Source of the DNA: Naegleria gruberi
Lineage: Eukaryota
Length of the DNA stretch: 64,000 nucleotides
Assembly (NCBI GenBank): GCA_000004985.1
Contig: GG738845.1
Direction: 5' to 3' (one strand)
The notes beneath the pieces were generated by a model. It worked only from the letters and a program-made list of their open reading frames with translations, did no database searches and was not told the origin of the DNA. Shown here in pieces: positions 1 to 64,000 of this stretch. The translations under genes and the position numbers were made by a program. Each line of letters opens with the position of its first letter. Position 1 is the stretch's first letter.

Positions 1-2266
1 GAAGTCTTCCTATTTGTCTCTTCTTCTTTTCCAAATCTCTCTTTACTTGTTCTTCTTTACCAAAACCAGCCCAAGATCCCCAACCTGGTTTAAATGTTGT
101 TGACAAGTCTGGCATATCAATTTCTTCGTCAATAGCTCTATCTTTTTCCTCTGCAAATTGTAATTCTAAATCATCCCCAGCAAAAGCTTCTTGCTTCACC
201 TTCTTCTCAAATTCCATTTGTTCTCTATTCTTTTTACTGGTGCTAACTACTGCCTCACTTTCTTCTTGTTCATTATTATTTGAAGAATCAATGCCAATCT
301 TGGTATCATCAGTGTCAATAAGAATCTTGGTAGCAATGTCCTTATTCAATTTCTTCTTTTTCTTATTCACAGTATCTGTAATATCATCACTATCTCTGCT
401 CTTTGTTTTTCCTGCTTTGTTGAGCCATGGATTTTCCTTTACAGATGTCCTTTTTCTCTTCATGGAAATACTTGTTGTTGCTACTTCCTCACTGTTTTGG
501 AGTGGTGTTTGCCCAAAAGTCTTGCTTTCAATTTTAGTTGTGTTCAGTACTGTTGTTTGAGGAACATTATTGGATGCTACGCTTGTTTGATTACTTGATA
601 CCTTGAGAGTGGATTTTGGAATAACAAAAGAATTCTTTTCAAATTTAGATTCAATAGAGTTATCCTCTTCACCAGAACTGGAATCATTTTCTTGTTTTTT
701 AGACCCTTTTGAAGTTTTTGAGAATTGCATTCTTCCAGAAGCCTCTTCACTATCAGTTACATTTTTTCCTAAATGAATTTCTACATCTCTTTCCATTTGA
801 TTAACAAGATCCATTTGCTCTAACTTCTTTTTATCCTCTGCTTTCTTCATAAACTTCATGCCAAATAAACCCTTGGCTTCTTTGTTTTCTTCTCCAGCAA
901 TGGTTTGTCTCATCATTTCAAAGGGATTAGATTCTCTTTCTTTTTTGAAAATTTCTTCAATAACTTCTTCCTCTTCGTCACTTTGATTTTCCTCTTTTTT
1001 CGTCTGTTTTTTGATAAGTTCTGTATGAATTTGAAGTTGATCAGCAACAGACTGTCTGAGGTCATCATTGTGAGACTGATGTTTCATGGCATGTCTAACC
1101 CATTTGGATGTATTCTTGTGTCTCATAGTCAATCTTTCAGTAATCATTTCTCTTTCTCGTTTCATTATTTTTTGTTTGAGTTCTTCTTCGTCCATGTTTT
1201 TCATTTCCTCTTCTTCTATTAATTCCTTTTGTTTTTCCTTTTGCTTTTTAAGAATTCTTCTATAAGTCTTACTCTTTATGTTTTTTAGCCATTTATTCTT
1301 TCTGGCCAACTTTTCCATTTCTCTTCTCTTATTCAAAACTTCCTTATGTCTTGCCATAAGTGCTTCTTTATCCATGTTTGATAGTTGTTTTTTAGTGGCT
1401 TCAAACGATTTCAACATTTCCACTTCGTTTGTGTCATCAAATACGCCACTACCTTTTATACCTTTTTCTAAAATCTTTTCTTTTTCTGTCTTGTCTCTAA
1501 GATGCTTGTAAATTATTGGCACATGTCTTGCATTTTCCACATTCTCAACAACAGTATGCCATTTTTCCATTCCTTCATCTACAATGTCAAAAGCTGCTCT
1601 TCTTTCTTCTCCTTGAATTTCTGTATCCTCAAGTGCATAGAATAATCCAGCTCCTTTTTTGAATTGCTTGTCAATTTTCTTCAATTCTTCAATGTTTTGT
1701 AACTCTTTTTGAGTTTTGTCTGCACTAACTCTTGTGTCATCGGAGTGTTTAGTAGTGGCAGAAATCAAATCAGAAAGCTGAATATCTTCGTCTTCACTTT
1801 CGTCATCATGAATGTGTGTAGCTTTCTTTATAAGTTTTTGTACATTTAATGAATCATTCTCGTCTTCATCCGATGAAGATTCTTCATCACTTGACATTTG
1901 TACTTGATTTCCAGAAAGTAGTGACTTCATTGTTTCTTCCTCTTCTCCATCGTTTGGAAAAAAGCCAGATACTTTTTGCTTCTTTGCTAACGATTTAGAA
2001 AGAGCATTATATTCATTTTCATCCTCATCCGATGAAGAAGTATCAAACTCGGAATACTTTTCAAATAACTATTAATGTTTTAAATTAAATAAACATACAT
2101 GTTTTCTAGATTCATTTCTATCTAAAACACTTTCGTTTGGTATTTCTTCCTCTGATTCCTCGTTATATTCAACTTCGTCAATCATTTCCTTGTCAGAATC
2201 ACTAGAATACTCTTGCTCTTCCTCTCTGATTTGTTCAATAAGTTTTTGCTGTTGTTTGTTCTTCAT
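1..2266 (-). CDS. UTP14: UTP14-like U3 snoRNP / small-subunit processome protein. Partial: C-terminus lies beyond window position 1. Probable 30-nt intron at 2069..2098.
   Basis: Reverse-complement translation of 1..2068 is an uninterrupted K/E-rich ORF. It contains the conserved UTP14 motifs LTMRHKNTSKW (about nt 1075-1110), GLFGMKFM (about nt 850-880) and PGWGSWAG (about nt 65-90). Not in the ORF track because it has no in-window stop. The plus-strand F/L/S-rich ORFs at 240..1511 are its antisense. Likely ATG at 2264-2266 (MKNKQQQKL). In-frame TAA TAG at 2069-2074 are removed by a GTATGT..TAATAG 30-nt intron. Confidence 0.7.
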
Positions 2267-2520
2267 TTTTTTTGTACCAACCCTATCAAACAATCCTTTG
2301 ATGAGAAATATTAACAGTTTTATTATTTGCAATTTTTGTTCGCCAACTACTAGTTAAGTAAATCATTGAATACATAATAATTAGTATGTATTTCTAATGC
2401 TGTTTTATTTACATTATTTATCATGAATGCTCACAACATTTAATTCAACGATACGTCATCAACACTTTAAAAAAACAACAGGACACGTCGTTTTTGCTAT
2501 CAAAGCATTGCAACACAATA

Positions 2521-4171
2521 TGGGAAATGTACTCTCTATGATTGGGTTTCAAAATAAAACTCATAATTTTCAAGAGGAATTACAACGATATGATAAAGAG
2601 ATTCGATATTATCATACTAGACAACGTAAATTTAATGTTAGAGCAAACTCTTTTCCGAACCGAATTTCCCAATTAATCATATTTATTGGAGTATTAGTTT
2701 GTACATCAGTGTACATGCTAATACCTCCTCCAGTTGCGTATTATGCAATTGTTGGGATTGGATTTTTATTTATAATAACGTAAGTAATTTCATCTTGTGT
2801 TGATAGAGTGATTGTTGGATATAAATCATGTGAATATTTAGAACTTGGATAATCAAGAAAGTGCTAGTAAGATACTATGATAATACTGTTTCATCGTATA
2901 ACTATGACATTGAGCAATTACTTTTAAAACAAAAGGAAATACTTGAAGATTTGAAACAACAAAACGATTACTATGCCACCCATGACCTTATCCAAAAATA
3001 TGAGAGAGCAATTCAAGTATTACAGAGACATGTAACAAGAAAAAGGAAAAAGTTGCAAATCTTTAAAAATTTGAAAAAGAGAAAGGATTTTAAATCATTG
3101 GAAGAGGAGTACGAGGATGATATGGAAACAACTGAAATTTTACTTTCTAATTATCCTTATTTTTCATATGAAGTATATAGAAAATATGCCACTAGGAACA
3201 CACTGCTTGATTCAGAAAATTCTAGTCAACCCGAACAAGACAAAACAGAAAAAACAATGACAACAATTACAACTCAAACAGATTCATCGCTGGGAATAGA
3301 AACACACTCACAACAACTGCAAACCCAGCAAATACTAGAGCAAAGTATGAACAAACTCTATTCTATGGTTTCTGCCATAAACGAGAACCAAAAACGAGTT
3401 CAAAAAATTCAATCTCTTCAAACTGTAGCAGAAAATGCTAGCCCTTTATTCAAATCTCATTCATTCCGTATTCCAAAAGAAAAAACTTCTGTTTCAGTAG
3501 GAACAATAGAGGAAGACAGCGATACTAGAAAGCGAGCAAACAGTCTTTCTTCTCAAGAAAAAGCTGAAAGCAACCAAGAAACTAATCAAGGTACTGAAGA
3601 AAGGCTGGAAGTTTCAAAGATATCTGAACTAGATGATCAATTGCTTAAGTTAAAACAGAGAGAACAACTGTTAAAAGAGAGAGAGGCCAAATTAATATTT
3701 AGAGAGTTGAATTTTGAAAAACAACTAAATGCCCTGGCTTTACAAAAACAAAATGCTATCTCTCCAAACGCTTTATACTCACCAGAGTTGACTGGTAAAT
3801 ATAGAATAAGTATCGATAAGAATAATAATGGCTTTGTTGAAAACTCAAAGACATGTAAACCTAACTGGTTTGACAGGTTGATGGACAGAGTGGTTGGTCA
3901 ATCACCAGAAAATTGTTATGCCCTTATATGCTCTAGGTGTTGTTCTCACAACGGATTAATGATGATGGATGATGCAGAAAACCATTCTGGATATAAGTGT
4001 TGGAACTGTAATTATCTCAATATCAAATCATCTTCTGTTTCAGATAGTGCAAGTGTAGTATCAGAAGTGACTGATGTACTATATATGGAAGAACATGATG
4101 AGGAAACCAACGAAACCAATGAAAATGAAGAAAAACAAGAAGCTGAAGAAAATACAGAGGTAGAGGATTAA
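2521..4171 (+). CDS. LNPK: Lunapark (ER junction protein) homolog. Two exons, 2521..2779 and 2842..4171, with a 62-nt GTAAGT...TTTAG intron.
   Basis: N-terminal MGNVLSM (Met-Gly myristoylation-type start, as in Lunapark). Hydrophobic hairpin segments. Coiled-coil region. C-terminal zinc finger CYALICSRCCSHNGL...YKCWNCNYLN, matching the Lunapark signature YALICxxCxxHNG...C..C.FLN. The two ORFs (2427..2783 and 2861..4171) join in frame across a canonical intron. Confidence 0.8.
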
Positions 4172-4174
4172 ACT

Positions 4175-8000: not shown

Positions 8001-8051
8001 GGTCAATTTTTACAAAATTGTATATACAGTAAAATTACAATGATATTAATA

Positions 8052-9074
8052 CTAGTTAGTACTGAAGTATGCATGTTTGAGACACTCAGTAGCACTTGGT
8101 CTTTTTGTTGGATCGTATTCTAACATTCTATATAGTAGATCAACACCATGAGAATCAAGCTTTTTGTGGAGAATATCAGAAGAAAATTGTTCTTTTGAAA
8201 TTCTTCCTTGTGAAGGAATTGATATTTTCTTTGCAATCTTATTCATCATGATATCATAGTTTGGAAGTTGTTTTAAATCAGGCCATTCATTACTGATTGG
8301 CAATCCTGTTTTTGAAATAATACTAGCTAGTTGAGATAATTCGTCTTTACCAGTGAATAATGGTTTTCCAGTTACCATCTCTGCAAAAATACAACCTAAA
8401 CTCCAAATATCCACACCAAAACCATATGATTGACTTCCTAAAAGAATATCAATAGATCTATACCATAAAGTAACAACTTCATGAGAAAGTTTTCTTACTG
8501 GTATTCCAAAAGATCTAGCCAATCCAAAATCTCCAAGTTTAAGCTCTATATTTCCTGTTTCAGGATTTGTTGATTGTCTACTTGAAGAATTTGAAGAGAA
8601 TGCATTTACAAGAATATTTTGTGGTTTTAAATCTCTATGAAGAACACTCTGCATGTGGCAATATTCTATACCCTTCAACATTTGTCTCATAAAATTTTTA
8701 ACTTGTCTGGATGGCAGTCCTTTTCCATCTCCAGCAACATTATTTATATACGCTTTTAAGTCACCATAGTTACAATATTCGAAAACTAGTGTTAACTGAT
8801 CCATGGAATGAACTAAATCAACGAGTCTTACAACATTAGGGTGTTTCAATTCTTTTAAAATGGCAATTTCTCTAATGGCTGTACAAGGAACCCCTTCATT
8901 TAATTGGTCAAGTTTGATACACTTCAATGCTACCAGTTGTTTGTTTGGTCCCATAGATTTATATACCTCACCATAAGTTCCTTCTCCGAGAGGTTCTATT
9001 TTTGCATAATTAAATGATTGAAATTGTGAAGTACTATCATCAATTGATGATGTATCCGATTGGTCCATATTCAT
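8052..9074 (-). CDS. Cyclin-dependent kinase (cdc2-related; PCTAIRE-like variant of the PSTAIRE helix)
   Basis: GEGTYGEVYK glycine loop, VALKCIK, GVPCTAIREIAILKEL, HRDLKPQNIL, DFGLAR and the WYRSIDILLG activation segment, with a short insert before DFG. Confidence 0.85.
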   Translation of the reverse strand: MNMDQSDTSSIDDSTSQFQSFNYAKIEPLGEGTYGEVYKSMGPNKQLVALKCIKLDQLNEGVPCTAIREIAILKELKHPNVVRLVDLVHSMDQLTLVFEYCNYGDLKAYINNVAGDGKGLPSRQVKNFMRQMLKGIEYCHMQSVLHRDLKPQNILVNAFSSNSSSRQSTNPETGNIELKLGDFGLARSFGIPVRKLSHEVVTLWYRSIDILLGSQSYGFGVDIWSLGCIFAEMVTGKPLFTGKDELSQLASIISKTGLPISNEWPDLKQLPNYDIMMNKIAKKISIPSQGRISKEQFSSDILHKKLDSHGVDLLYRMLEYDPTKRPSATECLKHAYFSTN

Positions 9075-10755: not shown

Positions 10756-13700
10756 ATGAGAAGGTCAGCTTTTGCTTCAGCGTCCAGAACAAATGATTTT
10801 GATAATATTAAGAATTTTGAAGAGTAAGTGTTGTATTTGAATTTTATCGGAAAGAAGAACAGCTAGTTTTATGAATGAAGTTGACTCTGATGATGATTCT
10901 CCGAAAAAAGCTGTTACTAAACCATCCTTATCCAACAGCATACCTGCAAAGCAGCATAATTTTAAAGGAAATACAACATCAACCCTAAAAACAAATAATG
11001 CCTCACACAACTTACCCAGTCATCTATTTGTAAGTCTAAACGATTTTATCATTTGGATTTGAAATTAGGAAAGAATTCAATTAAATCAGTGGCGAGTGAT
11101 TACAATGAATTCACCTCTAAGGAGCTAATGTCAAAAAGTGGATCTGATACTCATGAATTTGATAAATATAAACCCTCTATGGGATTTGGCAACCAAAATT
11201 CCACTGGAGGGTACAATACATTGAAAAGTACATTAAAGTCAACCACAATTTCCTCAATTCCAGGTATGTATTATAACAATTTTATATTCATTTTGTACAA
11301 AAAGAAGCCGAAGAGGCAGATACAACTACTTCTGAAGAAGCCCGAGTATATAAAAGATTGGATGATCTTGGGTATGATGATAGTGATTTAGAAATTGAAG
11401 GTCACAGTTCTGAATTATCTACATCTCAAGAAGAGTATCCAGTAATTACAACAGGCAAAAACTTTAACTCCGAACAAGCTATTAAAACAGCTCCTCAACC
11501 ATTGTACAGATCTATAGCAACTAATAGAGATATTGATTTAAAAACTAATGTAAATACTAAAGCTATTTCGGAAACCAAATCAATTAATTGTCAAACGAGT
11601 GGAGATTTTATGAAAGATTTTCAAGATAAGGAGAATTTGATAAAAGTGTTGAAGAAGGAATTGGAGATTAAGGATCAACAAATATTATCACTAAGAACTG
11701 AAATGGAAGTTGAGCAGAGAAAGAAGTGGAATGTCGCTGATGAGTCAACACAAACGATTAGTAATACGACCGAAAAGTCATCTCAAGTGAATATTGAGGA
11801 TGGAGAGAAGGAACACCTTCAAATCACTATTCAAAAATTCAAACATAGAATACAGGAGCTAGAAGCAGACATTATTGAAAGACAGGATGAGGTCGATCAA
11901 CTTAACAACAAGATCAAGAACTTAAAAGCCGACATTTTAAATGCACAACATGATGAATCGAGTAATGTAATATTACAAAAGCAAATCAACAAGCTATCCA
12001 AACAATTATTTGAATTACAAACAGAAAATACAATGTTAAATGAAGAGTTAAGGAAACATGAGGAAATAATGAATTATACACAAAGTGATATAGACCATTC
12101 CAGTTTACAACAAACTACAAAGACAGCAGATATGGAATTTGAAAATCTGAAAAAACAGCACGAAACTAACGACAAATTCTTAAAAGAATATCAAAAGCAA
12201 AATGAGAAACTAACAAGGGAGAATAAGGAATTAGGTTCTGAACTTAAAAACGTAAGAGGGGAATTGGACGATTTGAAAAGAAAACGAGCATTAAATGAAA
12301 AAGAAAAGGATGAAATTCATACCCTCCACAGAAAAATAAGAGAACTTGAGGAAATTATTCATTCGGAAAGAGTAGAGTTCGATAGAAAGGAAGAATATCT
12401 TAAAAATCAAATTCAAAAAGTCAAACACAGTAAGGAGGAGTTAGAAGTGAATTTGAAAAAATTAGATCCTCAAAAACTTGAGGAACAACGAATGTTCATC
12501 TTGAGTTTCGAAGAAAAATCAAAAATACTTGAACAACAACACAATGAAAAAATGATGGAATTATGTAGGAGACTTAAGATACAACAAGATCTTCAGGACC
12601 AATATGACCAACAAACAACAACAATACAACAACAGGAGAGGTTAATTAATAATTTGAAACACAAAATTAGAGAAATTGAAACAAGTTTATTTGATACTGA
12701 ATCAAGGATTAGAGAGAAAGAGAGAGAAAATAGAGAATTAAGATCAGAAAACTCAGATTTGTGGAGAGAGAAGAAAGATATTTCAAAAACTAGGGATAAA
12801 ATTTTGGAGCTAGAACAAGAAATTCGAATAAGGGATGAAAAAATCAATGCCTTCCCTAGAGATATCGAGAAGCAAAAGATAGAATATGAGAACAATATTC
12901 AAGAAGCTGAGATTAGAGTAAAAAAACTGGAATTTATGAAAGATAAAGAACATGAGAGTAAAATGAAAGAAATCAAGGAATATTATTTGAAAAAACAGAA
13001 AGAACTGAATGATACTGTTAAGGAATTATCTAGAGGAAAATCATTAATTTCAAACAAGAAAAAATCCAAAAATATCGCACAAGACTCTGATAATGATTTT
13101 CTTAAGGATGAATTGTTTGCAAAACAAGCAACTATTGAAGAATTAATGAAAAAGATTACGGAAATAGAATCAAGAAATGAAGGAAAGGAATTATCAAACA
13201 ATGAAACCTCAGTAATAAGGGAAGGTAATATTAATGAAGAGAGTGAACTAATAGGTGAACTAAGAATAGTTAGACTAGAAAAAGAAGAGTTGCTGAGAAA
13301 GTTAGAATTGTCAGAGATGAACAAAGTGTTCATAAAAGAAAATGCCATGGAACAAGTGAAGGCAGCCTACAGTGAATTGAATACTACAAGAGAAAAGTAT
13401 AGAAATGAAATACAGAACCTCGAGGAGAGACATAACCAAGAAATGAAATGTCAAGAATCACATTTTTTGCAAGAGATTGAAGATTACAAAAATATCATTG
13501 ATAATTCTGCTACTAAACAAACCCACACTTTACAGTTAATTAATGAAAATTCAGGAGAGAATTCCAGAATCTTAATGCTAAAGCAATTAATTTCACGAAT
13601 TGAAAATTTGGAAAGCAAACACAAAATCAAAGAGATGGAACTGGAAAGAGAGCTCAACGAGACAAGATATAGATATGAACTGAAAATTACATCAATGAAA

Positions 13701-13823
13701 CAACATCTTGATTTGACAGTCCAACAAAAAAACCAACAAGTACTTCAGTTAAAAACTTCCCTTGATAATTTAGTACAAGCATTCCAAAAGCTAAAGATAG
13801 CCCAAAGAGAAAATTTATTTTAA
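10756..13823 (+). CDS. Large coiled-coil protein, multi-exon. Proposed exons: 10756..10823, 10867..11029, about 11069/11074..11263, 11305..13823. Identity unknown.
   Basis: Small ORFs 10871..11062 and 11053..11391 and the large ORF 11358..13823 link through GTAAGT/GTATGT...AG introns of 41-44 nt. Intron 1 is 10824..10866; intron 3 is 11264..11304. The frame across intron 2 does not close with the obvious GTAAGT(11030)/TTAG(11068) pair (see findings). The body is a continuous heptad-rich E/K/Q coiled coil. Confidence 0.5.
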
Positions 13824-20015: not shown

Positions 20016-20627
20016 TTACAGCATTTCCTCTACTAACGACTTTAGAACATCTGCATGACATGGCCGTTCATACCTCTCACAAAAACACCCAATTTTCTTT
20101 CCTTTCAGTTCATGTAAAGAATTTTTCAAGTTTGGTTGAGAAAGAATGTAATCTCTGTACTTTTCTAAGGATTCTTTCTTGGGTAGTTTTTCGAAAGGGT
20201 TTGCCCATTTGGACTCGTTTAATTGCCACCCACTATGAAAACATCTTGAGCCAACATAAACATCACAATTTTGTATCGTTTCACCTTTCTTTTTTCTTAT
20301 TCTAACAACTTGTGTTTGAGTGTCAATAATTTCAATATCTAATTGGTTTCTTGTTTTCGGTTTCTTTTTCTTGGGAGAAATAACGCACGGGATGAGTCTA
20401 CCGGTTGTTTGACTCTTAATAAACAGGTTTCCATTTAGTTTTTTCATTGGAATATTTACATTACTATTGTACAGTTCTTGGTTGCTTTCCATAACATCTG
20501 AAAAATATCGTTTCCTTTTTTGATCATTTATTTCCGGTTCATCCATTAGGCTGTTCTCTGTTGTTTGGGTTTCTTCTGAAAATGTAAGAACAAAAATGCC
20601 TGCCTTCTTCTCCTGGGAGGTTAACAT
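20016..20627 (-). CDS. DUF4326-family domain protein (C-terminal domain) with an N-terminal basic extension
   Basis: C-terminal 90 aa read DVYVGSR...W...KWANPF...YRDYI...LHELKGKKIGCFCERYERPCHADVL. This matches the DUF4326 pattern as I recall it (GnPF ... L.GK.L.C.C.P..CHGDVL); the match is recalled from memory and should be confirmed by an HMM search against PF14216. Confidence 0.5.
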   Translation of the reverse strand: MLTSQEKKAGIFVLTFSEETQTTENSLMDEPEINDQKRKRYFSDVMESNQELYNSNVNIPMKKLNGNLFIKSQTTGRLIPCVISPKKKKPKTRNQLDIEIIDTQTQVVRIRKKKGETIQNCDVYVGSRCFHSGWQLNESKWANPFEKLPKKESLEKYRDYILSQPNLKNSLHELKGKKIGCFCERYERPCHADVLKSLVEEML

Positions 20628-27393: not shown

Positions 27394-27431
27394 ATTCTGC
27401 CATTTTTCTGTTTCTGATTTTATTCCATCTG

Positions 27432-28712: not shown

Positions 28713-28723
28713 TATAACTTTAC

Positions 28724-48100: not shown

Positions 48101-51100
48101 TCAAGAAATCCAACAGAGCTTGTTTCATTTTCAGTCCAAGACATGTGTTGGTCAAATAATAGTTTATTCATAATATTAGTTGATGCTAGAGGAAATATGT
48201 CTATGATTAGTAGACTTAATGAGTTTATGCTTATGAAGGATAAGCAATTATTACAACAAAGTGCAATCTCTAATTTTGTACCATTTTACAAAAATCATAG
48301 TGAAAGTAGAGATTTAGAAACTACAAAATTTTCTGTTAAATCTCACCCGTACCAAGGACAATTTATTGTTTCTGATGGATTTAAGGTAAAACTATTTAAT
48401 TTTGTTTCAGAAAGAGATGAAATTGATTTAACGACCATTCTTTCTTCTTATCACGGTTCTTGTTATGGTATTGAACAATATATTTTCCATGCGACCTATG
48501 ACAAAAAATCAAGAGTTGATACCGCTTTGGATATTTGGAGATTATGTGTCTCTCATCCTCAACTTTCCAGATTCCAAAAGCAAAATCATAATTATTTAGA
48601 GTTTGTAATCAAAAAGATGAGTGAGTATATACTCAACCATGGAGATTCCTTCTCCAAAAAAATAACCTCATTCTTTGAAATTCTTCAAGACAGCTTGGAT
48701 TGGAGTATTAATGGCGTTCAAAATCCAAGTTTTTTGCTTCCATATCTTATCAAACTTACAGAGATGGTTTTCAGAAAGTTTTTAAAAAAGGAAAAAAAGC
48801 AAAACCTTCAAAGATTAGCTAACTTTTTGGAAGAAACAGAGGCCAAATGTAATGAGCTTGTTCATTATTGTCAATCTTGTTTTGTTTGGGATACAAATAC
48901 TTTGGGCGATTCAGAAGCTGACTCTATTCGTCAATCTCCTATCATACTATTTGATTGTTGGGTAGAGCTTGGACAAAGTATTCAAACCGCTCTAAATAGA
49001 ATGAAAAATAAGCCTAATACTTCTGATATAAAGGCAACAGTGTTAAAGATTATTTCATCTGAAAAGAAGGCTAAGAGTGAGGCTGGAATGATTGAGAGTA
49101 GCAGTTCTGACGAAAGTGATCAAGAGATTAGAAAAAAACCTGCTAATAATATTATTTATGATAGCGATGAAAGTGATACATCAACAGAATATTTAGGTGA
49201 TGATATTGAAGATTTCTCTGATACTGCCAAAGTAATTTCTTCTGATGAAGAAAATGAAGATCTTGAAAATACCTTGAAAAAACTTTTAGAGCTGGTGATT
49301 AAAAAGTTGAAAAATCGTACAGCTTACTTGAGCAACAAAACTTCTGTTAATGGAACATTCCTAGAAAGATATTCGACTACATTGAATCCAAAAAGCAAAA
49401 GTATTTTCAGATTCACTAATCAAGATGTAAAATATTTACTGACTGGTAACAACCAATACATGTTAGGAAATTACAAAAAGGCTATCAAATACTATATGAA
49501 AATACATGAATCAAATGAAGCCCAATCACCTACCACATCAGCTACAATTCCATCAACAGCTCTTTCTTATTACACAAAATCTACAGTACTTTTTTTAGCA
49601 AATTTATTCATGTATGATATTACAGAAATATTTAGAGTTTTAAATGATCAAATGCATACAGGTATCGTTGATTTAGTTAGAAGCTCTGGAGTTCTTCTTG
49701 AACATCATAAAAATAATATTAGTAAGGGTTTGGGATCTGGTGTCCTTAGATCAACAGCCAATATGAATGTTATTAATGCAGTAATTACTTTACTAACTGC
49801 TCTATATGAAAAGAAAAATGTTTACATATTGTCACCTGTTTTTTATCAAATAATTGTTGATAAAAATACTGGTAATGATAATAAGAATATTTCTATAGAT
49901 TTAGTAATTGTAAAAGATATTACTTCCAAGCAAACAACAAATAGTATTGCCTACTATTATATTCCTCTAGATATGTCAACTTTTAAAACAAATTTTGAAA
50001 ATGAAATGAAAAAAAGATCAGTCAATGGAAAATCCATTGTAAATCAGTTATTGCTTGAAACTGGTAGAATACATGAGGCTATACGTTTTTGTTTGAGATT
50101 TGATTATAAGAAAGCTTACACCATCTTTCTAGTGACAAATGGAATGCTTGGAAGTAAAGAAACAACAGATACGTCTAACAATAGTGGTAACAATTCTGCA
50201 AAACCTGTACCAACCAAAAAATCATCCACACCAGGTCAAAAGAAAAATCAATACGATATTCAACAAATTGTACATATTTACAAAGAACTTTTGTACGAAT
50301 ATCTAGATAAGGAAGATAGCAAAGAGGTAAACACTATTCTAAGCACTACTGATTTTTTCATTCCAAAACAAAGTGATGAATTGAGAGTTGGTGCCATTGA
50401 AACATACCTCAGAAAATTGCAACTAATGTTAAAAGAAACATGTTCCTTGCTATTTTTAAGTAAGGAAGATTTTACTTCTGTTGTTACAACAAACGATAAT
50501 GATACGAGAAGGAGAAATAGATCTTCTGTTCTTTCTAAAGAAAAAAAGCTAACTAGGAAATTGGAAGATTTACTTGATAGAGAGTTTATGAAAAGTGAAT
50601 CATATTTTCTTTCGAACTTGTGTCAGTTCATAACTTCCCAAAAACCATCGAAGCCTACACGAAAACAAAGAGAATATTATCTTTCCTTATTGGATGCTAT
50701 TAGATCAGGTAATTTATTACCACACATTACCTTCAGAGAATATAGACTGAAATATTTGAGAAGAATTAATGAAGATGTTGTTGCCTATGATGAATCAGAT
50801 GGAATCCCTTTTTCCACACCAGTAACGACCAACATAAGAGGCGATAATATTAGTAATCTTCCCCTTATTACTGTAATCGAAAAAGAATGTGAAAAAAGCG
50901 TTAGATTTTTATTGATGGATCAATTGATTATCTTTTCAAACATTCCAAACCTTTCATTTATTGAATTACTAAAGTATTACCAAAACGACTTTTGTAAGAT
51001 GAATGGATTTTCTAAAGGTTTATCATCACAAGAGAAACAAAACCAATTGAGTCTCTATATCAAACCATTTAGATTTTTGTGTAGATTTTTATGGTATTGT

Positions 51101-52591
51101 CATATTACTGAGGAGATGACTTCCATAACTTCAAATAATAGGACAAATCCGTTTAAATTACTTTATAATCACTCTAAAAAATTGGAAACAGAGTCTGATA
51201 TTTCTGATTTAACTGATACCCTTGTGTATACTTGTGAATTGTTTGCCTTTTTGCTTGACTTTAGAGAATTTTTTACTAGATCATTTTTAGAATCTACTGT
51301 ATTAACAATTTTAACTGTGGCCATCAATATTTCACACAACACTAAAGATGAGGATGATATGAAATCTCCTAGAAGAGAAACAGATACTTCTCAACTACCT
51401 CACACAGAAATTCAAAACGATACAACAAAGAAAGGAAAGAGAAATATGATAGCAGAAACTGTTTGTAGAATATTAGCTAAGCACATGCATGATTCCCAAC
51501 AAGTAGTTCCTCATCTTGGAAAGAGATATGTACAACTTTCAAAAGCCCTAGATGAGAATATTTTAGAATCTAAAATCAACGAGTTTGAGGCTTTTAGACA
51601 ATACAAATCAGAAAATACCCAAGTAACAGATCAAGATAATGGTTCTTCAATTTTATGGACCTGTGAAATTGAAGAGTCATACTGGACCTTTTTACAAGTA
51701 TTTTTCAATGACGTTTTGAGTAACGCTGGATCGAATGCTAAGGATTTAATGACTAATATAACAGCAGCTATTTCTCAAGGAGAAAATTCAACTAGTTCTC
51801 TAATTGTAGACTCTCTTAACACTTTGAAACATTCCTTGGCAAAGATTAAAAACACCAAAACTACCAGTGGAACTTCAATCAAACCATCAACAACAGATGC
51901 TGACTCTAACAGATCACAAGAGCAAAGAGATATCACAAGACAACTTTCAGCTAAAGAATTGATCAATGACTTTAACAATATGGTTTCACAAAACAATAAT
52001 GGTGATTTAAGTGGAAGAAAGATTATTCCAAACAGAAGAACTAAGTCAGTCATTAGTACTAATACCACCATTAAGTATGAAGATAAAGTTGAAGAAACTG
52101 ATGACACTTACAATCTCCAAACTACTGAAAAAAGAAACGATTACGAAAATTCAAATGAAAAATATCCAACAACCAAGAAGAAAACTCAAACTCTGGATGA
52201 TCCTGCTTTGGGTTTAATTATTGACAGTATTTCAAATCCACAACAGCAAGTTCCTCCACTAAATATAAACAAGGAGGACGAGAAGAAAAAGCCATTCTCA
52301 ATCAAGAACTTTTTCAAATCAAAAGAGAGTCCAAGAAGTAGTTCCACAATTTCCTCTTCAAATGGCAACAAATTGAAAGATCTTACATCTCCAAGAGCAA
52401 ACACAATTTCTTCCACACCACCAACACATAAAAAACGAGCAAATAAGACAGTAATGGATGATGGAAATATTATTGGAGAAACTATTTGTGGGGATAGTCC
52501 AGCATCACACGAAATTGCAATCGAACACGATATTGATTCACCAGAAAGTGATGGTGAACAGACAAAATCCTACACAACAATCCACATCTAA
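45119..52591 (+). CDS. Very large uncharacterized protein (2490 aa). N-terminal S/N/T-rich low-complexity region, possible beta-strand-rich region in the middle, helical C-terminal half.
   Basis: Single uninterrupted ORF with ATG start. No family recognised by eye. Confidence 0.6.
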   Translation: MLTTIEHQYEAQISKLNSSMSSGVVGSIKKSHSGLPIQNIRWLSTMNLLNKPSVLVSNNVISSNAVGGITNVNLQSSSLSSGVSSAHSNLLSAQLISDPLFLYSNVNSNQSNSPSSIYSKQDVILEQLYTSNTSPTTSRSDKQEKSKTFTKQFSFDMHIAEMGGKSASTSNSIFSNQNVKNILVDPQLEELLNRYRSQITCINTSDNGKFVVFAIKTNETSSNNSNSTPVVSKPNILIIIYSRSQQIQNMVNNLNKTNQNSQPSMSQKIKTYFNGSSNLDSSDSKKTKKGNLGHLLGQIKVVQPPRGMQEMDGLSWRKKLKSVETLNRNINERNISKGNMGDSNDFIKGSSHTNQPSNTINISQLPPVSVKQIFISNDGYNVVCVTENNDIWLYDCFPSSRSNIANLFKYENSMFRINNSGNLNNSTNMSSRSRSASSPQFGNVASSFGSTNTDSKRMSDSRNTINATLLPSSNIDSMLEEETFHRYLMKTNNQGLFAIDDFGLHYQPRNSVVGNELLPTPREPIVTVSGMNIHSSSSSSIGNYLQYSIEEWTILPSHLDGVDNVNYRSKEGTDQKQVLLPNEDIHFDIKFCHSPIHGRFCQISSAIVSKMFVKYEIYKKMQSMFQANIESPEKKKVNASLGVINSNNASIMKHEGFSPLENLPSSSSLLKEQGLVIKDKNKNSDDEDIGPNIKARRSPSVFRHMASANISTSADISDSDSDSSDTPTLSRQNSLVSLANSVKIPKLKLNFGSSEKKTNDRVSVKREMAFETVRNDNQLSKKSSNKNIGRMSMILSRSGLASAFDTSSSGISTPRLTSRVGTFSGASADQVIPTLFDDFNNLPTSFQSKDLETPNILSRCLLISNCTVFLSKRKFIKSANSFNTNPIPTPRFPIIDHCPFHLSIDRTYTVLDKVLDEEDVSMTKVFHGAAKQKSIPECIVKWDNETSMLCVVANSFDHSSLFESKVFFYSPIRRKSVCVVYGTKSLECLPMSRTSRNPTELVSFSVQDMCWSNNSLFIILVDARGNMSMISRLNEFMLMKDKQLLQQSAISNFVPFYKNHSESRDLETTKFSVKSHPYQGQFIVSDGFKVKLFNFVSERDEIDLTTILSSYHGSCYGIEQYIFHATYDKKSRVDTALDIWRLCVSHPQLSRFQKQNHNYLEFVIKKMSEYILNHGDSFSKKITSFFEILQDSLDWSINGVQNPSFLLPYLIKLTEMVFRKFLKKEKKQNLQRLANFLEETEAKCNELVHYCQSCFVWDTNTLGDSEADSIRQSPIILFDCWVELGQSIQTALNRMKNKPNTSDIKATVLKIISSEKKAKSEAGMIESSSSDESDQEIRKKPANNIIYDSDESDTSTEYLGDDIEDFSDTAKVISSDEENEDLENTLKKLLELVIKKLKNRTAYLSNKTSVNGTFLERYSTTLNPKSKSIFRFTNQDVKYLLTGNNQYMLGNYKKAIKYYMKIHESNEAQSPTTSATIPSTALSYYTKSTVLFLANLFMYDITEIFRVLNDQMHTGIVDLVRSSGVLLEHHKNNISKGLGSGVLRSTANMNVINAVITLLTALYEKKNVYILSPVFYQIIVDKNTGNDNKNISIDLVIVKDITSKQTTNSIAYYYIPLDMSTFKTNFENEMKKRSVNGKSIVNQLLLETGRIHEAIRFCLRFDYKKAYTIFLVTNGMLGSKETTDTSNNSGNNSAKPVPTKKSSTPGQKKNQYDIQQIVHIYKELLYEYLDKEDSKEVNTILSTTDFFIPKQSDELRVGAIETYLRKLQLMLKETCSLLFLSKEDFTSVVTTNDNDTRRRNRSSVLSKEKKLTRKLEDLLDREFMKSESYFLSNLCQFITSQKPSKPTRKQREYYLSLLDAIRSGNLLPHITFREYRLKYLRRINEDVVAYDESDGIPFSTPVTTNIRGDNISNLPLITVIEKECEKSVRFLLMDQLIIFSNIPNLSFIELLKYYQNDFCKMNGFSKGLSSQEKQNQLSLYIKPFRFLCRFLWYCHITEEMTSITSNNRTNPFKLLYNHSKKLETESDISDLTDTLVYTCELFAFLLDFREFFTRSFLESTVLTILTVAINISHNTKDEDDMKSPRRETDTSQLPHTEIQNDTTKKGKRNMIAETVCRILAKHMHDSQQVVPHLGKRYVQLSKALDENILESKINEFEAFRQYKSENTQVTDQDNGSSILWTCEIEESYWTFLQVFFNDVLSNAGSNAKDLMTNITAAISQGENSTSSLIVDSLNTLKHSLAKIKNTKTTSGTSIKPSTTDADSNRSQEQRDITRQLSAKELINDFNNMVSQNNNGDLSGRKIIPNRRTKSVISTNTTIKYEDKVEETDDTYNLQTTEKRNDYENSNEKYPTTKKKTQTLDDPALGLIIDSISNPQQQVPPLNINKEDEKKKPFSIKNFFKSKESPRSSSTISSSNGNKLKDLTSPRANTISSTPPTHKKRANKTVMDDGNIIGETICGDSPASHEIAIEHDIDSPESDGEQTKSYTTIHI

Positions 52592-52633: not shown

Positions 52634-54577
52634 ATGTTTGGCTCATCAGCGACGGGTAGAACATCATCTATGCAAGATGATCAACAAGAATCAAAATCAA
52701 CAACAAACGCTAACATTACAAATCTTGAAGGTGTCAAGGAAAAAGATTTGGAGGATTATAAACAAATATTAAATATTTTACTTGGAGCAGGATATTTCCG
52801 TGTTCGTATTGCATCATTAACACCTTTTGACAAAATTTTGGGAGGATTATGTTGGTGTATTAGTAATTCCTACAATGCTGATGCGGATGTAGAAATGTTA
52901 AGTTATGAAGAGGAAGCAAACATTGGTAAAAAAATTAAATTGGCAGAAAAAGTTGTTCTTGCTCTTAGAAGAATGGGTTGTACAACAGAATTAAATCCTG
53001 TACAAATTCAAGGTTTGGATTGTCCTTTCATCTTACAGGTATTTTCATGGCTTGTTAAAAAAGTTCATGAATCAAGAGAGGAAAACAAAGAAAGAATTCA
53101 AAGGTTTAGCGAACTTCAATTTTCTAGAAAGTTTGAATTACCACAAGATACTCAATCCATGCAACAATATACTCAAGCTGTACCATACTTGGAAAGTATT
53201 AAAGGATTTTATCATCCAAAGAGAAAGTTCAAACATCAACAAAGAAAACAAATCAAAAATGAATGGGGTCATGTGCAGACTGTACTTTTAGAATATGGGG
53301 TAGAATTTAAAAAAATTGAGAGATCCCAACAAGAGAAAGAAGATAAATCAAAACTAGAGAGACAATTAAGAGCCCAAAAAACAAAAGCAAATGAGCCATC
53401 AGGTAATTTGGTTGAGGATTTGGATGAAGAAACAAAGGAAAAGAAAATTCAAGAACTTAAAAAACTTGTGGAGCAAAACGAAAACTTTTACAATAATATT
53501 TCAGCTTCTGGTGCTTCTACTTTGATTAGTTTGGGTGCTCATGATATTATGAAATTAAAGGAAGAATACGATGAAAAGACCAAAGACTTTATGGATCAAC
53601 AAGAAAACTTACAAACTGATCAAACTTTACACAAAAGAAATGTTGCCCAATTAACCAAGAAAATAGAAAACCAAAAAGCGTAAGTGTATTAATAGCTTTA
53701 ACATTAAATTAATGGAAATAGTATTTACTTGAAAGCAAAGGAAGAATATAACAATGTAAAGATTGAATATGACAAGGTTGCTGAAAACTACTCAAAATTC
53801 AAAGAATATAACGAACAAATTCAAGAAAAGATCAATCAACTCAAATCTACTGTTGAAACCAGAGATGTGGATCAAACAGTCATTAAGAAATTGGAAAATT
53901 TAATTGCAACCAACGAAAGCTACAAAAAGCAAGAAACTGAATTTAAAACAGAGTGTCAACAAAAATTGAAGGAATTGAAGGAATCAATTGCAACTTTGGA
54001 ACAAGTTGTTACTGATCCAAATGATCCAATTGTTCAACTACAACAATCATATGTTAATGATATGGAAAAGATGAAAAAGATCAAAAAGTTAGCAGCCAAA
54101 AGAAACAGAGAACTTGCAATTATTCAATCTAAAATTGATGAAATCCCTTCAAGAACAGAATTATCTCAATATGAAAGAAGATTTACTGAATTGTTTACTC
54201 AGATCTCATCAAAACTCGATGAAACAAAGAAGTATTTTGTATCGTATAACACATTATCATCAACTTGCTCATTTATGGAACAAGAATTATCTTTGCTCAA
54301 TGCTATTGCTGATTTCTTCCAAAAATCAGTACAGTCCCAAGATAAGAAATATAAAACTTGGATGGTAACAACAATAAGTGACAGAGTTGAAAAGGTAAGA
54401 CAGACCAAAGAACAAGTCAACCAAAAATTAAAAGAAACTGAAAAGAAAAGAGACGATTTGCAAAATAAGTACAATGAATTGGTTTCCAAACAAAGAAATT
54501 ACTTTAGAGCTGTCAAGGAGTTCCAACATGAGATGTTAAAGAATGAAGAATTGAATAAGAGATTAAAACAACAATAA
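52634..54577 (+). CDS. CCDC93: CCDC93 (Commander/CCC complex subunit) homolog. Two exons, 52634..53679 and 53722..54577, with a 42-nt intron.
   Basis: N-terminal block ILNILLGAGYFRVRIASLTPFDKILGGLCWCI...IGKKIKLAEKVVLALRRMGCTTELNPVQIQGLDCPFILQVFSWLVKKV matches the CCDC93 N-terminal NN-CH domain (ILELLVAAGYFRARI..LSPFDKV.GG..WCI...QKIALSEKIV..L.RM.C...L.PHQIQG.D...I.PV.QWLVK). C-terminal coiled coil. Total about 634 aa, as in CCDC93. Confidence 0.8.
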
Positions 54578-57518: not shown

Positions 57519-57522
57519 ACAT

Positions 57523-59030: not shown

Positions 59031-60839
59031 ATGAATCTAACTAAGGAAACTAAAAAACTAGTTTGGAAACAACAAATAGAAGCTAGGGGAAGTACTTGGA
59101 AAGTAAAGTGTGTTTCACTTTCGGAAAATGACTTATTAGTACTTGGTTCTGACACTGATGAACAGAGCTCACATTTATTTATTTGTGATTTGAAAAGTTT
59201 GGAGTGGTCAACAGCCCCTCTCTTCGGGGATGGTCCTAGCAATTCTGATTTTCATTTCCCAATAATATCTGAGGAAAATGAAGGCTTGTTTGTTTTTTGG
59301 ATCATGAGAGAAAAGGGATTACCTGCACTTCTTGTTGCTGATTATGAAAATGAAGGACTGACTCTTTCCAAAGGAGAACAAGTATTGTTATTTGATAGTG
59401 ATACAATGGATGACGATATGATATTGTGCATGAACAGGAAGGATAGGGTAATAGTGGCACCAAAAACACTGTTTGCAGTAGAAGAAGAAAATTCATTTTT
59501 TGAATTTTTTGAAAGATCAGAAATAGTAATTAGTTTTTTAAACTTTGCAAATGGAATGCAATGGTCAAGGATTCTAGTTGACAATGACCAGGCACCAAGG
59601 GCTAGAAGAGATTTCACCTGTACCAAGATAGATCAAAAGATTTACTTTTTTGGAGGAATTTCAGATAGTGGAATCATTCACAATGATATGTACATATTAG
59701 ATTTGAGTAGGTACTTCTTTTTTAATCTTCATCAGACATTTATCATTCAAATAGTTGATTTGAAGTGGTCTAAATGTACCTTTAAATCTGAAGATGATAA
59801 GCCAACAGCTAGATATGGTCATTCTGCAACTGTTCTAGATAGCGAATATATTCTGATATTTGGAGGAAGTGGATATGAAACAAAATTTAATGACCTGTAT
59901 CTATTTAATATTTTTAGTAAGGAATGGAGTTTGTTGGAAATTGATGAATGCCCCTTAGCGAGAAGTCATCACTCTTTTGTGAGATTGAATGAATTTATTG
60001 TTTTATTTGGAGGAGAGGGTGAAGAATCAATACTGAATGACCTATTCATTTTGGATATTGAGGAGAGTAGATGGGAGAAAATAGAAAACGATTTTAATCC
60101 ATCCCCCAGATTTAAGCATTTTTGTGGTTTGTTTTCTTCACAGGACTCTCTTGTATTTTTTGGAGGAGAGAATGGTTCAGAAAATTTATTCGATATCTAC
60201 ACACTGCATGCAGAAGATGATAATGAAGTGGAATTGATTTATTCTTCACCTAAATTGGAAATAGAAGACGAGTTTCGTCTCGAAATAAGTTCTGAAGAAA
60301 ATGACTCAACACAAGTAGAAAACGATGTTAATTGGTCAACTAACCAACCAGAGGAATACGAATTGAATAGTTACGCATTTATTGAAGAATCTGCTGAAGA
60401 AGAAGACAGAATGGACGAAATTGTATTTGAGGAAAATTCATCAACAACATCCGTTGTGGAGCAACCACAACAGTATGATCAAATGACACAAACCTCTGTT
60501 GATAGAGAAGAAGAAATTTTTGACTTTTCACACGACTTTCAAACTCACAATGAAGGTAATGACCTGGTTATTGAATTTGATACTCATGAATTTGTCGTTG
60601 AGGACGAATGCTTTCTTGAACCCACTAGCTCTCAATTGACTGAGGAAAAGGATATGTTGGAAGTAATATTTAGAAGCATATCTCTTGGAAACCCTACTAT
60701 TTCACTATTTACATTGCTAAAAATATGTAGAAACTGCAGAATAACAGAAAATTGGCTGTGTTATGATTCAATCCTTGAAACCGTCTCAAATATCTTACAA
60801 AAGAGTAAGTTATTACAATATATAATTACTACCTGTTAA
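59031..60839 (+). CDS. Kelch-repeat beta-propeller protein with acidic C-terminal region. Possible in-frame 48-nt intron at 59707..59754.
   Basis: Repeated PxARxxHS/F ... IY.FGG ... NDLY.LDL ..W blades: PRARRDFTCTKIDQKIYFFGG, PTARYGHSATVL..ILIFGG, PLARSHHSFVRL..IVLFGG, PSPRFKHFCG...LVFFGG. Confidence 0.65.
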   Translation: MNLTKETKKLVWKQQIEARGSTWKVKCVSLSENDLLVLGSDTDEQSSHLFICDLKSLEWSTAPLFGDGPSNSDFHFPIISEENEGLFVFWIMREKGLPALLVADYENEGLTLSKGEQVLLFDSDTMDDDMILCMNRKDRVIVAPKTLFAVEEENSFFEFFERSEIVISFLNFANGMQWSRILVDNDQAPRARRDFTCTKIDQKIYFFGGISDSGIIHNDMYILDLSRYFFFNLHQTFIIQIVDLKWSKCTFKSEDDKPTARYGHSATVLDSEYILIFGGSGYETKFNDLYLFNIFSKEWSLLEIDECPLARSHHSFVRLNEFIVLFGGEGEESILNDLFILDIEESRWEKIENDFNPSPRFKHFCGLFSSQDSLVFFGGENGSENLFDIYTLHAEDDNEVELIYSSPKLEIEDEFRLEISSEENDSTQVENDVNWSTNQPEEYELNSYAFIEESAEEEDRMDEIVFEENSSTTSVVEQPQQYDQMTQTSVDREEEIFDFSHDFQTHNEGNDLVIEFDTHEFVVEDECFLEPTSSQLTEEKDMLEVIFRSISLGNPTISLFTLLKICRNCRITENWLCYDSILETVSNILQKSKLLQYIITTC

Positions 60840-60873
60840 AATAGCTTTAAATGGAGAGGAACAAATTGATTGC

Positions 60874-62476
60874 TTGGAATTCAGGAAAATAACAGCAGAG
60901 CTCTCGCAAAAGAGAAGTAAGAAACTCCAAGACACAACATTCAGCCACATGCAACTAATTGAAACTCTGTTAAAGCCTTACTACAAAACAGTTAGTAATC
61001 CAGATGATATGTTAATAGAGATTTTGTCTCCAACAATTCTCAACTTATTCACTTCTAAAAAAGAGCAGCTTCAAGAGGTGAGTAACAAAGCTTATATATC
61101 AAACTTATTTAACATTCAAAGTTGTTTTCTGTGTATTCATGTCTTAATTCAAATTCTCATTTTCCAGATACAAAGGAAGTTATGAAATCAAATAGTACAA
61201 TATCTCTAGCAGAATTTCTTTCTTTTGCAGAAACATTTGACATTACTCCCCACAAAATATCAAGAGTCCCCCTTCAAAAAACAATATTCTATAATAGTCT
61301 ACCTCCTGAAGGAAGTGAATCATTCAAAGAGAGCAAATCAAAAGGTTTAAACTATCCTCAGTTTCTAGAGTCGTTATGCAGGTTAGCAATACATATTTAC
61401 TCTCAACATCCTTTCTCTAACCTAGTCAAGACGAGTAAAGATAAAGTAGATATCTTTTTTAAACATATGGGATTTAAGGACATCTCAAAGTTCAAAGAGT
61501 TTTTAAAAAAAGCTGGTATTGGTGGTATTTCATTTAGCCCTAGCAAGAAAATAGCAACCAAAATTGCAAAACCTTCCAATTTAACAAACAGTGGAGGATC
61601 CACAAAACAAAAACCTGACCAAATTATGGAAACCAAACAAATTATTACCGATGAAATAAGAAGACAATATGTCGAAATGATCCAAAACAAATATCTTCTC
61701 AAAGAAGAGCTAGAGAATGTTTTTATGTATTACTGCTCTTTCGGAAATAGGATGAATCTAGATTTAATGAGCTCCTCCAAGTTCAAAATGTTCATTAGAG
61801 ATACTAATATATATAACTATGGTTTCAAGCAAGAGGAAGCAGATTTAATTTTCGTAAAAATATTATCAAGTACAAAGAAGAAATCTAACTTATCCCAAAA
61901 GTTGACATTTCCTCAATTTGTAGACTGTGTAAAAGAGATTGCCTCAAAACTTCGTAAGGATATAACTCCCTCTAAAGCATTTGCACAATTTTTACTTATT
62001 GATGTTTTACCAAAGGTCCATAGGTTAGAGAATCAAAAATATTTAGGCAATGATGAAAAGTTAAACGTTTTACTTGACAAGTTTAGAAACAATCTGCAAA
62101 AGGTTTGTAAAATACCCATTAATTCATGTTAACCTGCAAACAGCTGTTTTTATTTTATTGCAACTTGGATACTGGAGTGACTCTAAAAGAAACCATGTCC
62201 AGTAATAATTTATTCAAACTTTGTTTGGATTTTGAGATAATTCCTCTTGTATCAAAAAAAGATATTTACAAAGTTTTCAGATCACACACAAATACCGAAT
62301 TAGTTTATCACAAGTTTGAAAATTGTTTAATAGAAATTGTACATTCAGCATATGATAAGCATCCTTATAACTCTAAATACCCTTCACAAGCTGAAAAACT
62401 TGGAGCTCTTTTTCAAAAAATGGAGCTTGGAGATTGGAATATGACAAGGAAACGTTTGGAAACACAACAAGAATAA
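60874..62476 (+). CDS. Multi-repeat p25-alpha/TPPP-domain protein. Exons ?..61077, 61176..62102, 62144..62476; 5' end uncertain.
   Basis: Three ORFs link by introns GTGAGT...ACAAAG (61078..61175, 98 nt) and GTTTGT...AAACAG (62103..62143, 41 nt). There are several p25-alpha-like modules (F.K/F..F...K.I.f.eF...L..LA). The first ATG in frame is MQLIETLL at about 60949. No ATG precedes the in-frame TTG used by the track. Confidence 0.5.
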
Positions 62477-62898: not shown

Positions 62899-63149
62899 AT
62901 GCAAGTTAGGTCAAGAAAATCGGGAGGTGTTAAACAACAAAAACTTACTGTATCAGGTTCTGATCACGGCACGATCTTGAAGACTTACTTTGGTGATGAT
63001 GATGCTCCAGGTATTAAAGTGTAAGTGGTTTACATTCTATAAATGTTTAATAATCATTTAATAGTTCCCCAACAACCGTTCTTGTTGGTAGCTTGGTTTT
63101 TATCTTCTCTGTAATTGTTCTTCACTTCTGGGGTAGATTCTTTGGATAA
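62899..63149 (+). CDS. SEC61B: Sec61 beta subunit (Sbh1). Two exons, 62899..63020 and 63065..63149, with a 44-nt GTAAGT...TAATAG intron.
   Basis: MQVRSRKSGG...ILKTYFGDDDAPGIKV | SPTTVLVGSLVFIFSVIVLHFWGRFFG. The conserved ...SPGLKV.P..VL..SL.FI.SV..LH.WG tail-anchor is obtained only after splicing. Absent from the ORF track (too short). Confidence 0.8.
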
Positions 63150-63351
63150 ATCATCAACTGAATTTACATTGTACTACTTCCATCAATTTCCTTTCTCCCA
63201 TTAATCACTAATAAACAAACTACATTATCATTGATGTATAGGATGAAGTAATATTATTTTGTAAAATAATAGTATTATTCTCTATTAATCAAAATTTAAT
63301 TGTTATTAATTCACCACTGATTAAAAAAAGAGGTAATTTTAAATTTAAAAA

Positions 63352-64000
63352 ATGGACAAAGTGTTAGAGGCCTCAACTTTGGAGATCGCATTGGAGGGAT
63401 TCAGAGGTTGCTCGTTCGAGAAATTAGTAAAACTCTTACAAGAATATCACGAGTATGATATAAAAGAAGACGAAGATATGCAAATATGTTTGTGGAGTTA
63501 TTTACTTAGAAATAGTAAACTTTCTTTCTTTAAAATAGTTCCGAACAATGGCGACTCTTCAACAACCAACAATACTCCACCACCTAAGCAGAAATCAAAC
63601 AAAAAAGCCCCACAAAAGAATGACTATCAATACACAACCGAAGGTTTCCAAGAGTATGCAGAGACTAGAAACAATTTCGATTCTCGTTTCTCCTCTAAAC
63701 GGTTGTTGGTTGATAACCTTTCTGAATTGGGTACACTACCAACATCAGATATTTGTATTGTTGCACAATTCGAATATAGAAAATTTGCTTTAGGTTTAGA
63801 TATTAGATCCGATGTTGAAATAAGTGAAATACAGTATTGCATGTTGGAAGAAGTTGGCCGGTCAAGATATAGTGGAAGGTTCCAAAATGATTTGACAAAA
63901 TACTTATGTATTGATTCAAGGTCAACTTTATATCACTTAAAACGGTTATACGGATTAAATTTACTTTTGAAAAAGTCTTCATATGATCCACGTTCTAAAA
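63352..64000 (+). CDS. GTF3C1: TFIIIC B-block-binding subunit (TFIIIC220/GTF3C1) N-terminus; partial, continues past the window end
   Basis: MDKVLEASTLEIALEGFRGCSFEKLVKLL... matches MDALESLLDEVALEGLDGL.L..LW.RL. IQYCMLEEVGRSRYSGRFQNDLTKYL.IDSRSTLYHLKRL matches [22 protein letters not shown]....KVDAGKLHYHRKIL of GTF3C1. Open to position 64000. Confidence 0.7.
   Translation, partial: MDKVLEASTLEIALEGFRGCSFEKLVKLLQEYHEYDIKEDEDMQICLWSYLLRNSKLSFFKIVPNNGDSSTTNNTPPPKQKSNKKAPQKNDYQYTTEGFQEYAETRNNFDSRFSSKRLLVDNLSELGTLPTSDICIVAQFEYRKFALGLDIRSDVEISEIQYCMLEEVGRSRYSGRFQNDLTKYLCIDSRSTLYHLKRLYGLNLLLKKSSYDPRSK

Follow-up and report, generated by a model that had tools for sequence, protein, structure and literature searches.

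Minimal-length GT-AG introns predicted in ten genes of a 64,000-nucleotide stretch of Naegleria gruberi nuclear DNA

Compact protist and fungal genomes having short introns, those of Naegleria fowleri and N. lovaniensis included, show a common pattern, in which the introns are of the GT-AG type, with donors resembling GTAAGT, bodies rich in A+T and lengths narrowly grouped around a mode of 40-50 nucleotides (nt). For Naegleria gruberi, a genome of 41 megabases, 33% GC and 15,708 genes has been published, in which genes have on average 1.7 exons and the mean intron is 203 base pairs (bp) long; the mean in N. fowleri is 126-144 bp, and the mapping of RNA sequencing reads in that species used a minimum intron of 30 bp (PMC8296547). 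Roughly a third of the genes of the N. gruberi strain NEG-M have introns. Here, we describe the introns of a 64,000-nt stretch of N. gruberi DNA (assembly GCA_000004985.1, contig GG738845.1, positions 1 to 64,000; called the window below), which are likewise of this very short type. Both the published 1.7 exons per gene and the mapping minimum of 30 bp fit a short-intron picture.

The window has been assigned to the published NEG-M nuclear genome because three of its products match deposited proteins. Its open reading frame (ORF) for IFT57 is 100% identical to the N. gruberi protein NAEGRDRAFT_45002, its unspliced Dis3 ORF is the exact equal of RRP44 XP_002683420.1, and the spliced product of 142 amino acids from its adaptor sigma gene is the exact equal of AP sigma XP_002683429.1. 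All three are recorded on a contig of 1,555,553 bp, and the window is therefore part of that genome. The G+C content of the window is 27-35%, as against about 33% for the NEG-M genome, whose flagellate-capable gene content is matched by that of the window (IFT57, IC97 and p25-alpha). Long ORFs fill both strands, and their products are typical eukaryotic proteins.

After correction, 15 introns have been placed in 10 of approximately 29 genes. This corresponds to about 0.5 introns per gene, near the published 0.7 for the species. The lengths are 30, 40, 41, 41, 41, 42, 43, 43, 44, 44, 44, 46, 48, 62 and 64 nt. The median is 43 nt, and 12 of the 15 lie between 40 and 48 nt; no long intron was detected in the window. 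The A+T content of the introns is 76%, compared with 67% for the whole window. Read on the coding strand, all 15 have a GT 5' end and an AG 3' end. The donors (GTAAGT in seven, GTATGT and GTAGGT in two each, and GTACGT, GTGAGT, GTAAGC and GTTTGT in one each) agree with an extended 5' splice-site consensus of GTRNGT-like form, the acceptors are YAG or AAG, and many introns show, to the eye, TTAAY or ATAAY-like motifs 10-18 nt before the acceptor. Removal of the introns gives continuous homology across 10 of the 15 junctions and restores the reading frame at the other five. Since neither GTAAGT (23 found, 25.1 expected) nor GTATGT (15 found, 19.5 expected) is enriched in the window, the signal is the position of the donors exactly at frame breaks and not their number. 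Judged by these sequence comparisons, the segments would almost certainly be minimal-length GT-AG introns of an already known genome, removed by ordinary spliceosomal splicing.

An initial annotation, made from the letters alone, had described the window as a eukaryotic nuclear locus whose GT-AG introns are very short; this description is well supported, with homology restored by intron removal and intron positions shared with relatives. Among the 13 introns that it listed, ten sets of coordinates stand, three boundaries were wrong, and two further introns had been missed. GT and AG ends were found on the given strand in 12 of the 13 segments, while the candidate 28693..28733 lacks them. The estimate that at least 13 genes are split was too high: the listed introns fall in 11 of the genes as then defined, and the 15 corrected introns in ten. 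The proposed length range of 30-110 nt becomes 30-64 nt, the two longest proposals having been among the mis-set ones.

We propose that U2-type GT-AG spliceosomal introns of the minimal-length class interrupt ten genes of the window, and that these segments would be removed from the pre-mRNA by the spliceosome before translation. A bacterial ORF finder (translation table 11), which has no concept of splicing, would then list each exon as an ORF of its own, give internal exons invented starts at TTG or GTG, discard exons shorter than its length cut-off, and translate straight through an intron that is in frame and free of stops. What had been noticed about the ORF list is true in these respects. 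Internal exons are printed with TTG or GTG initiators as M; UTP14 is missed, the body of the gene reaching the end of the window unlisted and only a fragment of 86 amino acids being given; and Sec61 beta is missed, its exons being only 41 and 28 codons long. These points are trivial, following as they do from the design of the tool.

The evidence from homology is as follows. In the AP-2 sigma gene, an intron of 64 nt lies on the minus strand (41757..41820, GTAAGC..AACAG). Pfam aligns the spliced product over residues 1-141 of 142, and the match to the AP-2 sigma chain 2jkr_I reaches 202.6 bits over residues 1-142, as compared with 151 for AP-1 sigma, 117.6 for AP-4 and 100.8 for AP-3; by this best full-length match, the sigma chain is assigned to the AP-2 type. 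An intron is found at this position in the AP-2 sigma gene of N. fowleri, too. Several of the intron positions in the window are shared with N. fowleri or N. lovaniensis, while sequence and length differ. The intron of CCDC93 is 42 nt long (53680..53721, plus strand, GTAAGT..AATAG). After splicing, the CCDC93_CC profile (273.4 bits) aligns in one stretch, from residues 193-627 to positions 3-427 of its hidden Markov model (HMM), as against two pieces in the unspliced sequence; CCDC93_N scores 124.5 bits. In the Sec61 beta gene (intron of 44 nt, 63021..63064, plus strand, GTAAGT..AATAG), the Pfam family Sec61_beta (PF03911; 54.5 bits, cut-off 27) covers residues 30-64, with the junction, at residue 41, inside the match. 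Human SEC61B (2wwb_C) aligns over residues 8-66, likewise across the junction and with the C-terminal transmembrane segment included.

The gene for CASC1/IC97 (DNAI7) is interrupted on the minus strand by 46 nt (35021..35066, GTACGT..AATAG). Residues 261-436 of the spliced query align to Chlamydomonas IC97 (8glv_AE), through the junction at residue 273. Casc1_N (PF15927) scores 137.7 bits in the spliced product, and the matches 8glv_AE, 9e5c_5n and 9y6s_9K in PDB have E-values of 4e-35 to 1e-25. The intron of UTP14, 30 nt long and also on the minus strand (2069..2098, GTATGT..ATAG), is in frame and contains TAA TAG. Single UTP14 proteins of N. lovaniensis, a metagenomic (JGI) Naegleria and Willaertia align with exon 1 (MKNK..IPNESVLDRNESRKH) as well as with exon 2. 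The UTP14 family (PF04615) scores 198.2 bits against a cut-off of 30.2, and an ORF-style call of the protein (P0050) begins only past the tandem stops. For the five genes above, as well as for the segments 59707..59754 and 62103..62143 discussed below, homology across the junction bears out the coordinates first proposed. The families that had been named (UTP14, LNPK, MCMBP, AP2S1, CCDC93 and SEC61B) were all confirmed by homology of the spliced products.

Two other GTAAGT sites were considered as donors and ruled out, one at 9835 in IFT57, where the unspliced product equals the published protein, and one at 34530 in CASC1, where the residues encoded by the candidate align to IC97 homologues.

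Three genes carry introns placed by frame restoration. In the Lunapark gene, removal of 62 nt (2780..2841, plus strand, GTAAGT..TTTAG) joins the ORFs 2427..2783 and 2861..4171 in frame. The product has a Zn_ribbon_10 domain (PF10058; 53.5 bits, cut-off 24.2) and, judging by its sequence, two hydrophobic stretches, one of which is likely to be transmembrane and spans the junction; together they would form a putative N-terminal hairpin. The ORF opens at an upstream ATG at 2427, and a second methionine at 2520 begins MGNVLS. We take the codon at 2520 to be probably the true initiation codon because MGNVLS fits the N-myristoylation-type start that is to be expected of Lunapark. One metagenome scan each for Lunapark and UTP14 gave no relatives.

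A coiled-coil gene starting at 10756 on the plus strand has three introns. The first (10824..10866, 43 nt, GTAAGT..CTAG) is tentative and restores the frame; the third (11264..11304, 41 nt, GTATGT..AAAAG) links the frames of the ORFs 11053..11391 and 11358..13823. With these two alone, as had been proposed, the product hits a stop, and addition of a second, previously unlisted intron (11030..11073, 44 nt, GTAAGT..GAAAG), which we likewise regard as tentative, gives an open product of 979 amino acids. The listed coordinates 2780..2841, 10824..10866 and 11264..11304 thus stand, by frame restoration together with splice signals. The remaining case is an unnamed gene on the minus strand, running from 29239 down to a gap of undetermined bases (N). 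Here the candidate 28693..28733, without GT and AG ends, needs a shift of 6 nt to 28687..28727 (41 nt, GTAGGT..TTAAG), the removal of which unites both frames of the gene.

Among the rival explanations, the one that survives best is that the models of the initial annotation were right where they differ from ours, namely that MCMBP has an intron of 109 nt (18927..19035), that the p25-alpha gene has one of 98 nt (61078..61175), and that Kelch and p25-alpha are separate genes. The two long segments do end in GT and AG and keep the frame. In MCMBP, on the minus strand, the donor of the longer version is GTGTAA, and a consensus GTAAGT sits two bases inside it and pairs with an acceptor at 18991, giving an intron of 43 nt (18991..19033, GTAAGT..TAAAG). 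With this intron, the profile MCM_bind (PF09739) scores 357.8 bits in one stretch, covering HMM positions 5-550 of 577. With 18927..19035 the score is 316.3 bits in two stretches, so that the longer version costs 41.5 bits and breaks the Pfam match in two. The corrected intron regains 22 conserved residues (VRSHNYGVTLGKFILNIYNCDK), which the longer one had deleted. MCMBP has no sequence relative in PDB.

The other part of this rival concerns a gene on the plus strand at 59031..62476, which we model with five exons encoding about 1090 amino acids, that is, a Kelch beta-propeller followed by one or more p25-alpha-like domains. Taken by itself, the Kelch ORF ends in frame at a stop of its own (60839), in keeping with two separate genes. 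This stop is removed by an intron that had not been listed (60805..60844, 40 nt, GTAAGT..AATAG) and that leads into the ORFs assigned to p25-alpha. A separate p25 gene would have to start with TTG, 35 nt past the Kelch stop. We searched the p25 exon against 1.84 billion protein cluster representatives, and representatives of 742-2024 amino acids align over the junction between Kelch and p25; the junction ILQK|TLNG is crossed in the alignments of P0085, P0087, P0088 and P0089, four independent cluster representatives in which the two parts form one protein. In N. lovaniensis, the Kelch and p25 parts lie in one unbroken exon (L008 3001-4713). At the sequence level, this proves that the Kelch and p25-alpha ORFs belong to a single gene, the N. 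lovaniensis exon requiring no assumption of splicing.

Within the p25 part, the segment 61078..61175 cuts out 18 conserved residues, LFSVYSCLNSNSHFPDTK (LFSVYSC...), which match IFAIYS, IFDIYS or LFIMYS in four relatives and also resemble IFDVFSS, the start of an N. lovaniensis exon after a 42-nt intron. The acceptor is accordingly set at 61121, giving an intron of 44 nt (61078..61121, GTGAGT..CAAAG). For the last intron (62103..62143, 41 nt, GTTTGT..AACAG), the junction NLQK|LFLFYCN corresponds to NLQKLFILYCN in relatives, and N. lovaniensis has an intron of 50 nt at this position. Taking MCMBP and this gene together, we consider it very unlikely that the longer introns and the separate genes are correct. 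The p25-alpha domain (PF05517) scores 51.8-52.2 bits against a cut-off of 22.6 and is partial or short, since the match covers HMM positions 1-84 of 153. A protein of N. gruberi with a Kelch part and a short p25alpha domain, the TPPP-like XP_002683090, has been described (Orosz, 2012, PMC3498115); its architecture equals that of the window gene, and the two may be the same locus or paralogues.

A second rival, in our judgment even less probable, holds that the in-frame segments, the UTP14 segment with TAA TAG and the Kelch segment 59707..59754, are not spliced and reflect read-through, a variant genetic code or coding insertions. The Kelch segment (48 nt, plus strand, GTAGGT..AATAG), which is the first intron in our model, is invisible to the ORF finder because it is in frame and free of stops; it could be translated, its counterpart in N. 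lovaniensis is in fact translated in an automatic annotation, and the intron is possibly retained in a minor isoform. Against this, its removal adds 50 bits to the Kelch profile PF24681 (211.5 bits spliced, 161.7 unspliced) and raises the score of every Kelch profile; the orthologue P0085 lacks the 16 residues that the segment encodes; and an in-frame intron of 45 nt occupies this site in the N. lovaniensis homologue. As for UTP14, two stops follow one another in the segment, the ends of which (GTATGT..TAG) are canonical. Stop codons seem to have kept their standard meaning, since the window has ORFs that stay open for up to 2490 codons when the standard stops are applied.

The weakest rival, that errors of sequencing or assembly, or lesions of pseudogenes, underlie the frame breaks, with GT..AG pairs occurring by coincidence, may draw on the 380-N assembly gap in the window, on a break at 23620-23665 without a good short intron and on the chance frequency of GTAAGT and GTATGT, and yet it is hardly credible as a general cause because of the consensus-like ends at 15 of 15 breaks, the tight lengths, the continuous homology on removal with one product exactly equal to a published protein, and the positions conserved in N. 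fowleri and N. lovaniensis without conservation of sequence or length.

Several points weigh against minimal-length splicing as modelled here. Frame restoration and splice signals alone back the introns of Lunapark, the three of the 10756 gene and 28687..28727, and the intron 11030..11073 requires the second of two close AGs (11073, not 11068). The acceptor of the UTP14 intron is ambiguous, an alternative at 2057 giving an intron of 42 nt that is also in frame. With the 42-nt version a CATTAAT motif, identified by eye, has a more usual spacing from the AG, and the 30-nt version is the length outlier of the whole set; the alignment of orthologues is too variable there to choose between the two. 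The window median of 43 nt differs from the far longer published genome-wide means for N. gruberi and N. fowleri, and is far exceeded by the 203 bp of the former. Finally, 18 models, spliced or alternative, and two unspliced ORFs as controls were looked up exactly in a public protein collection, in which, among the spliced models, only AP sigma is present verbatim, together with the Dis3 control; the Kelch + p25 model of 1090 amino acids was not found. On this sequence comparison, the published models of the other genes would differ somewhere from our spliced models or be absent.

The same look-up bears on the state of the public annotation. Because only AP sigma was found verbatim, and because no RefSeq N. 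gruberi protein was among the UTP14 homologue matches, the results suggest that the public annotation differs for several genes of the window. A broader proposition seems to us possible but on the doubtful side: that UTP14, Sec61 beta, MCMBP, CCDC93, CASC1 and Kelch + p25-alpha are missing or mis-modelled publicly, and that the introns of N. gruberi are tighter (about 40-48 nt) than the 203-bp mean suggests, including conserved, in-frame, stop-free introns that predictors translate and that may give retained-intron isoforms. In N. lovaniensis, the deposited model P0089 of the Kelch + p25 protein omits a conserved exon (IFDVFSS..ISLDSFIAFNETF.., L008 4714..4934, PYSW02000007.1) and translates the 45-nt in-frame intron of the Kelch domain; this is likely to be an annotation error in the public record. 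In another observation on the genus, the CDK-like kinase gene of a related Naegleria (L006 3891..3929) has a 40-nt intron (GTAAGT..TTTAG) inside HMQ|SVLHRDLKPQN, which is absent from the genes of N. gruberi (8052..9074) and N. fowleri. Therefore, the presence of an intron varies within the genus.

The intron content of the window is expected and already known, and no new biology is claimed. The genome of N. gruberi and its intron content were published in 2010 (Fritz-Laylin et al., Cell 140:631, cited in PMC8296547). The breaking up of spliced genes by a prokaryotic ORF list is trivial, and the result has little biological weight. There are nevertheless lessons for annotation. A proposed N. 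gruberi intron well over about 65 nt is suspect, both long proposals in the window having been wrong. Introns that are in frame and free of stops, and stops lying within introns, can conceal exon-exon joins, as illustrated by the Kelch ORF, the apparent terminal stop of which lies in an intron. Neighbours on the same strand a few tens of bases apart may be a single gene.

Besides UTP14, Lunapark and Sec61 beta, the proteins encoded in the window include Dis3/Rrp44, the CDK-like kinase (8052..9074), IFT57, a Myb protein, a syntaxin-like protein, MCMBP, a RUN-domain protein, a CH-domain protein, a DEAD-box helicase, CASC1/IC97, an LRR protein, TspO, the clathrin-adaptor sigma chain, an Hsp70-family protein, CCDC93, a TPR protein, BCD1, FKBP, Kelch and p25-alpha. 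In models based on first-ATG ORFs, the approximately 29 genes make about 91% of the window coding, compared with a published coding share of 57.8% for the N. gruberi genome. Spacing is tight in these models. Tandem neighbours on the same strand are 18-55 nt apart, and between convergent genes the stops are separated by 3-4 nt or overlap by 4 nt (examples are 13823/13842, 10725/10756, 52591/52634, 18315..18318, 4171/4175 and 57518/57523). Either untranslated regions must overlap neighbouring genes, or some first ATGs must not be real starts. No tRNA was found in the window, and no Rfam family matched it. Two long ORFs, one of 2490 open codons at 45119..52591 and one of 1257 amino acids at 23620..27393, have zero Pfam matches.

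The assembly gap consists of 380 N at 27432..27811, within a coding region of the minus strand, and an ORF of the bacterial ORF list (27420..28712) runs through it as X residues. Also on the minus strand, the ORF of 1257 amino acids and that of the RUN-domain protein (900 amino acids) overlap by 46 nt in different frames at 23620..23665, both being coiled-coil-like at the junction. A short consensus intron closing this break was sought there and not found; the break may reflect an assembly error of 1 nt, an intron of non-consensus type or the border of two genes. The region 29239..20963 on the minus strand, spanning both the N gap and the break near 23650, may be one giant gene. On the same strand, an ORF of 203 amino acids (20016..20627) contains DUF4326 (57.8 bits). 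This domain is known chiefly in bacteria and phages, and the ORF is possibly a lateral acquisition in Naegleria. Neither in N. fowleri nor in other Naegleria is the gene order of N. gruberi near IFT57 and AP-2 sigma kept, while the pair of IFT57 and the kinase is retained with a different orientation.

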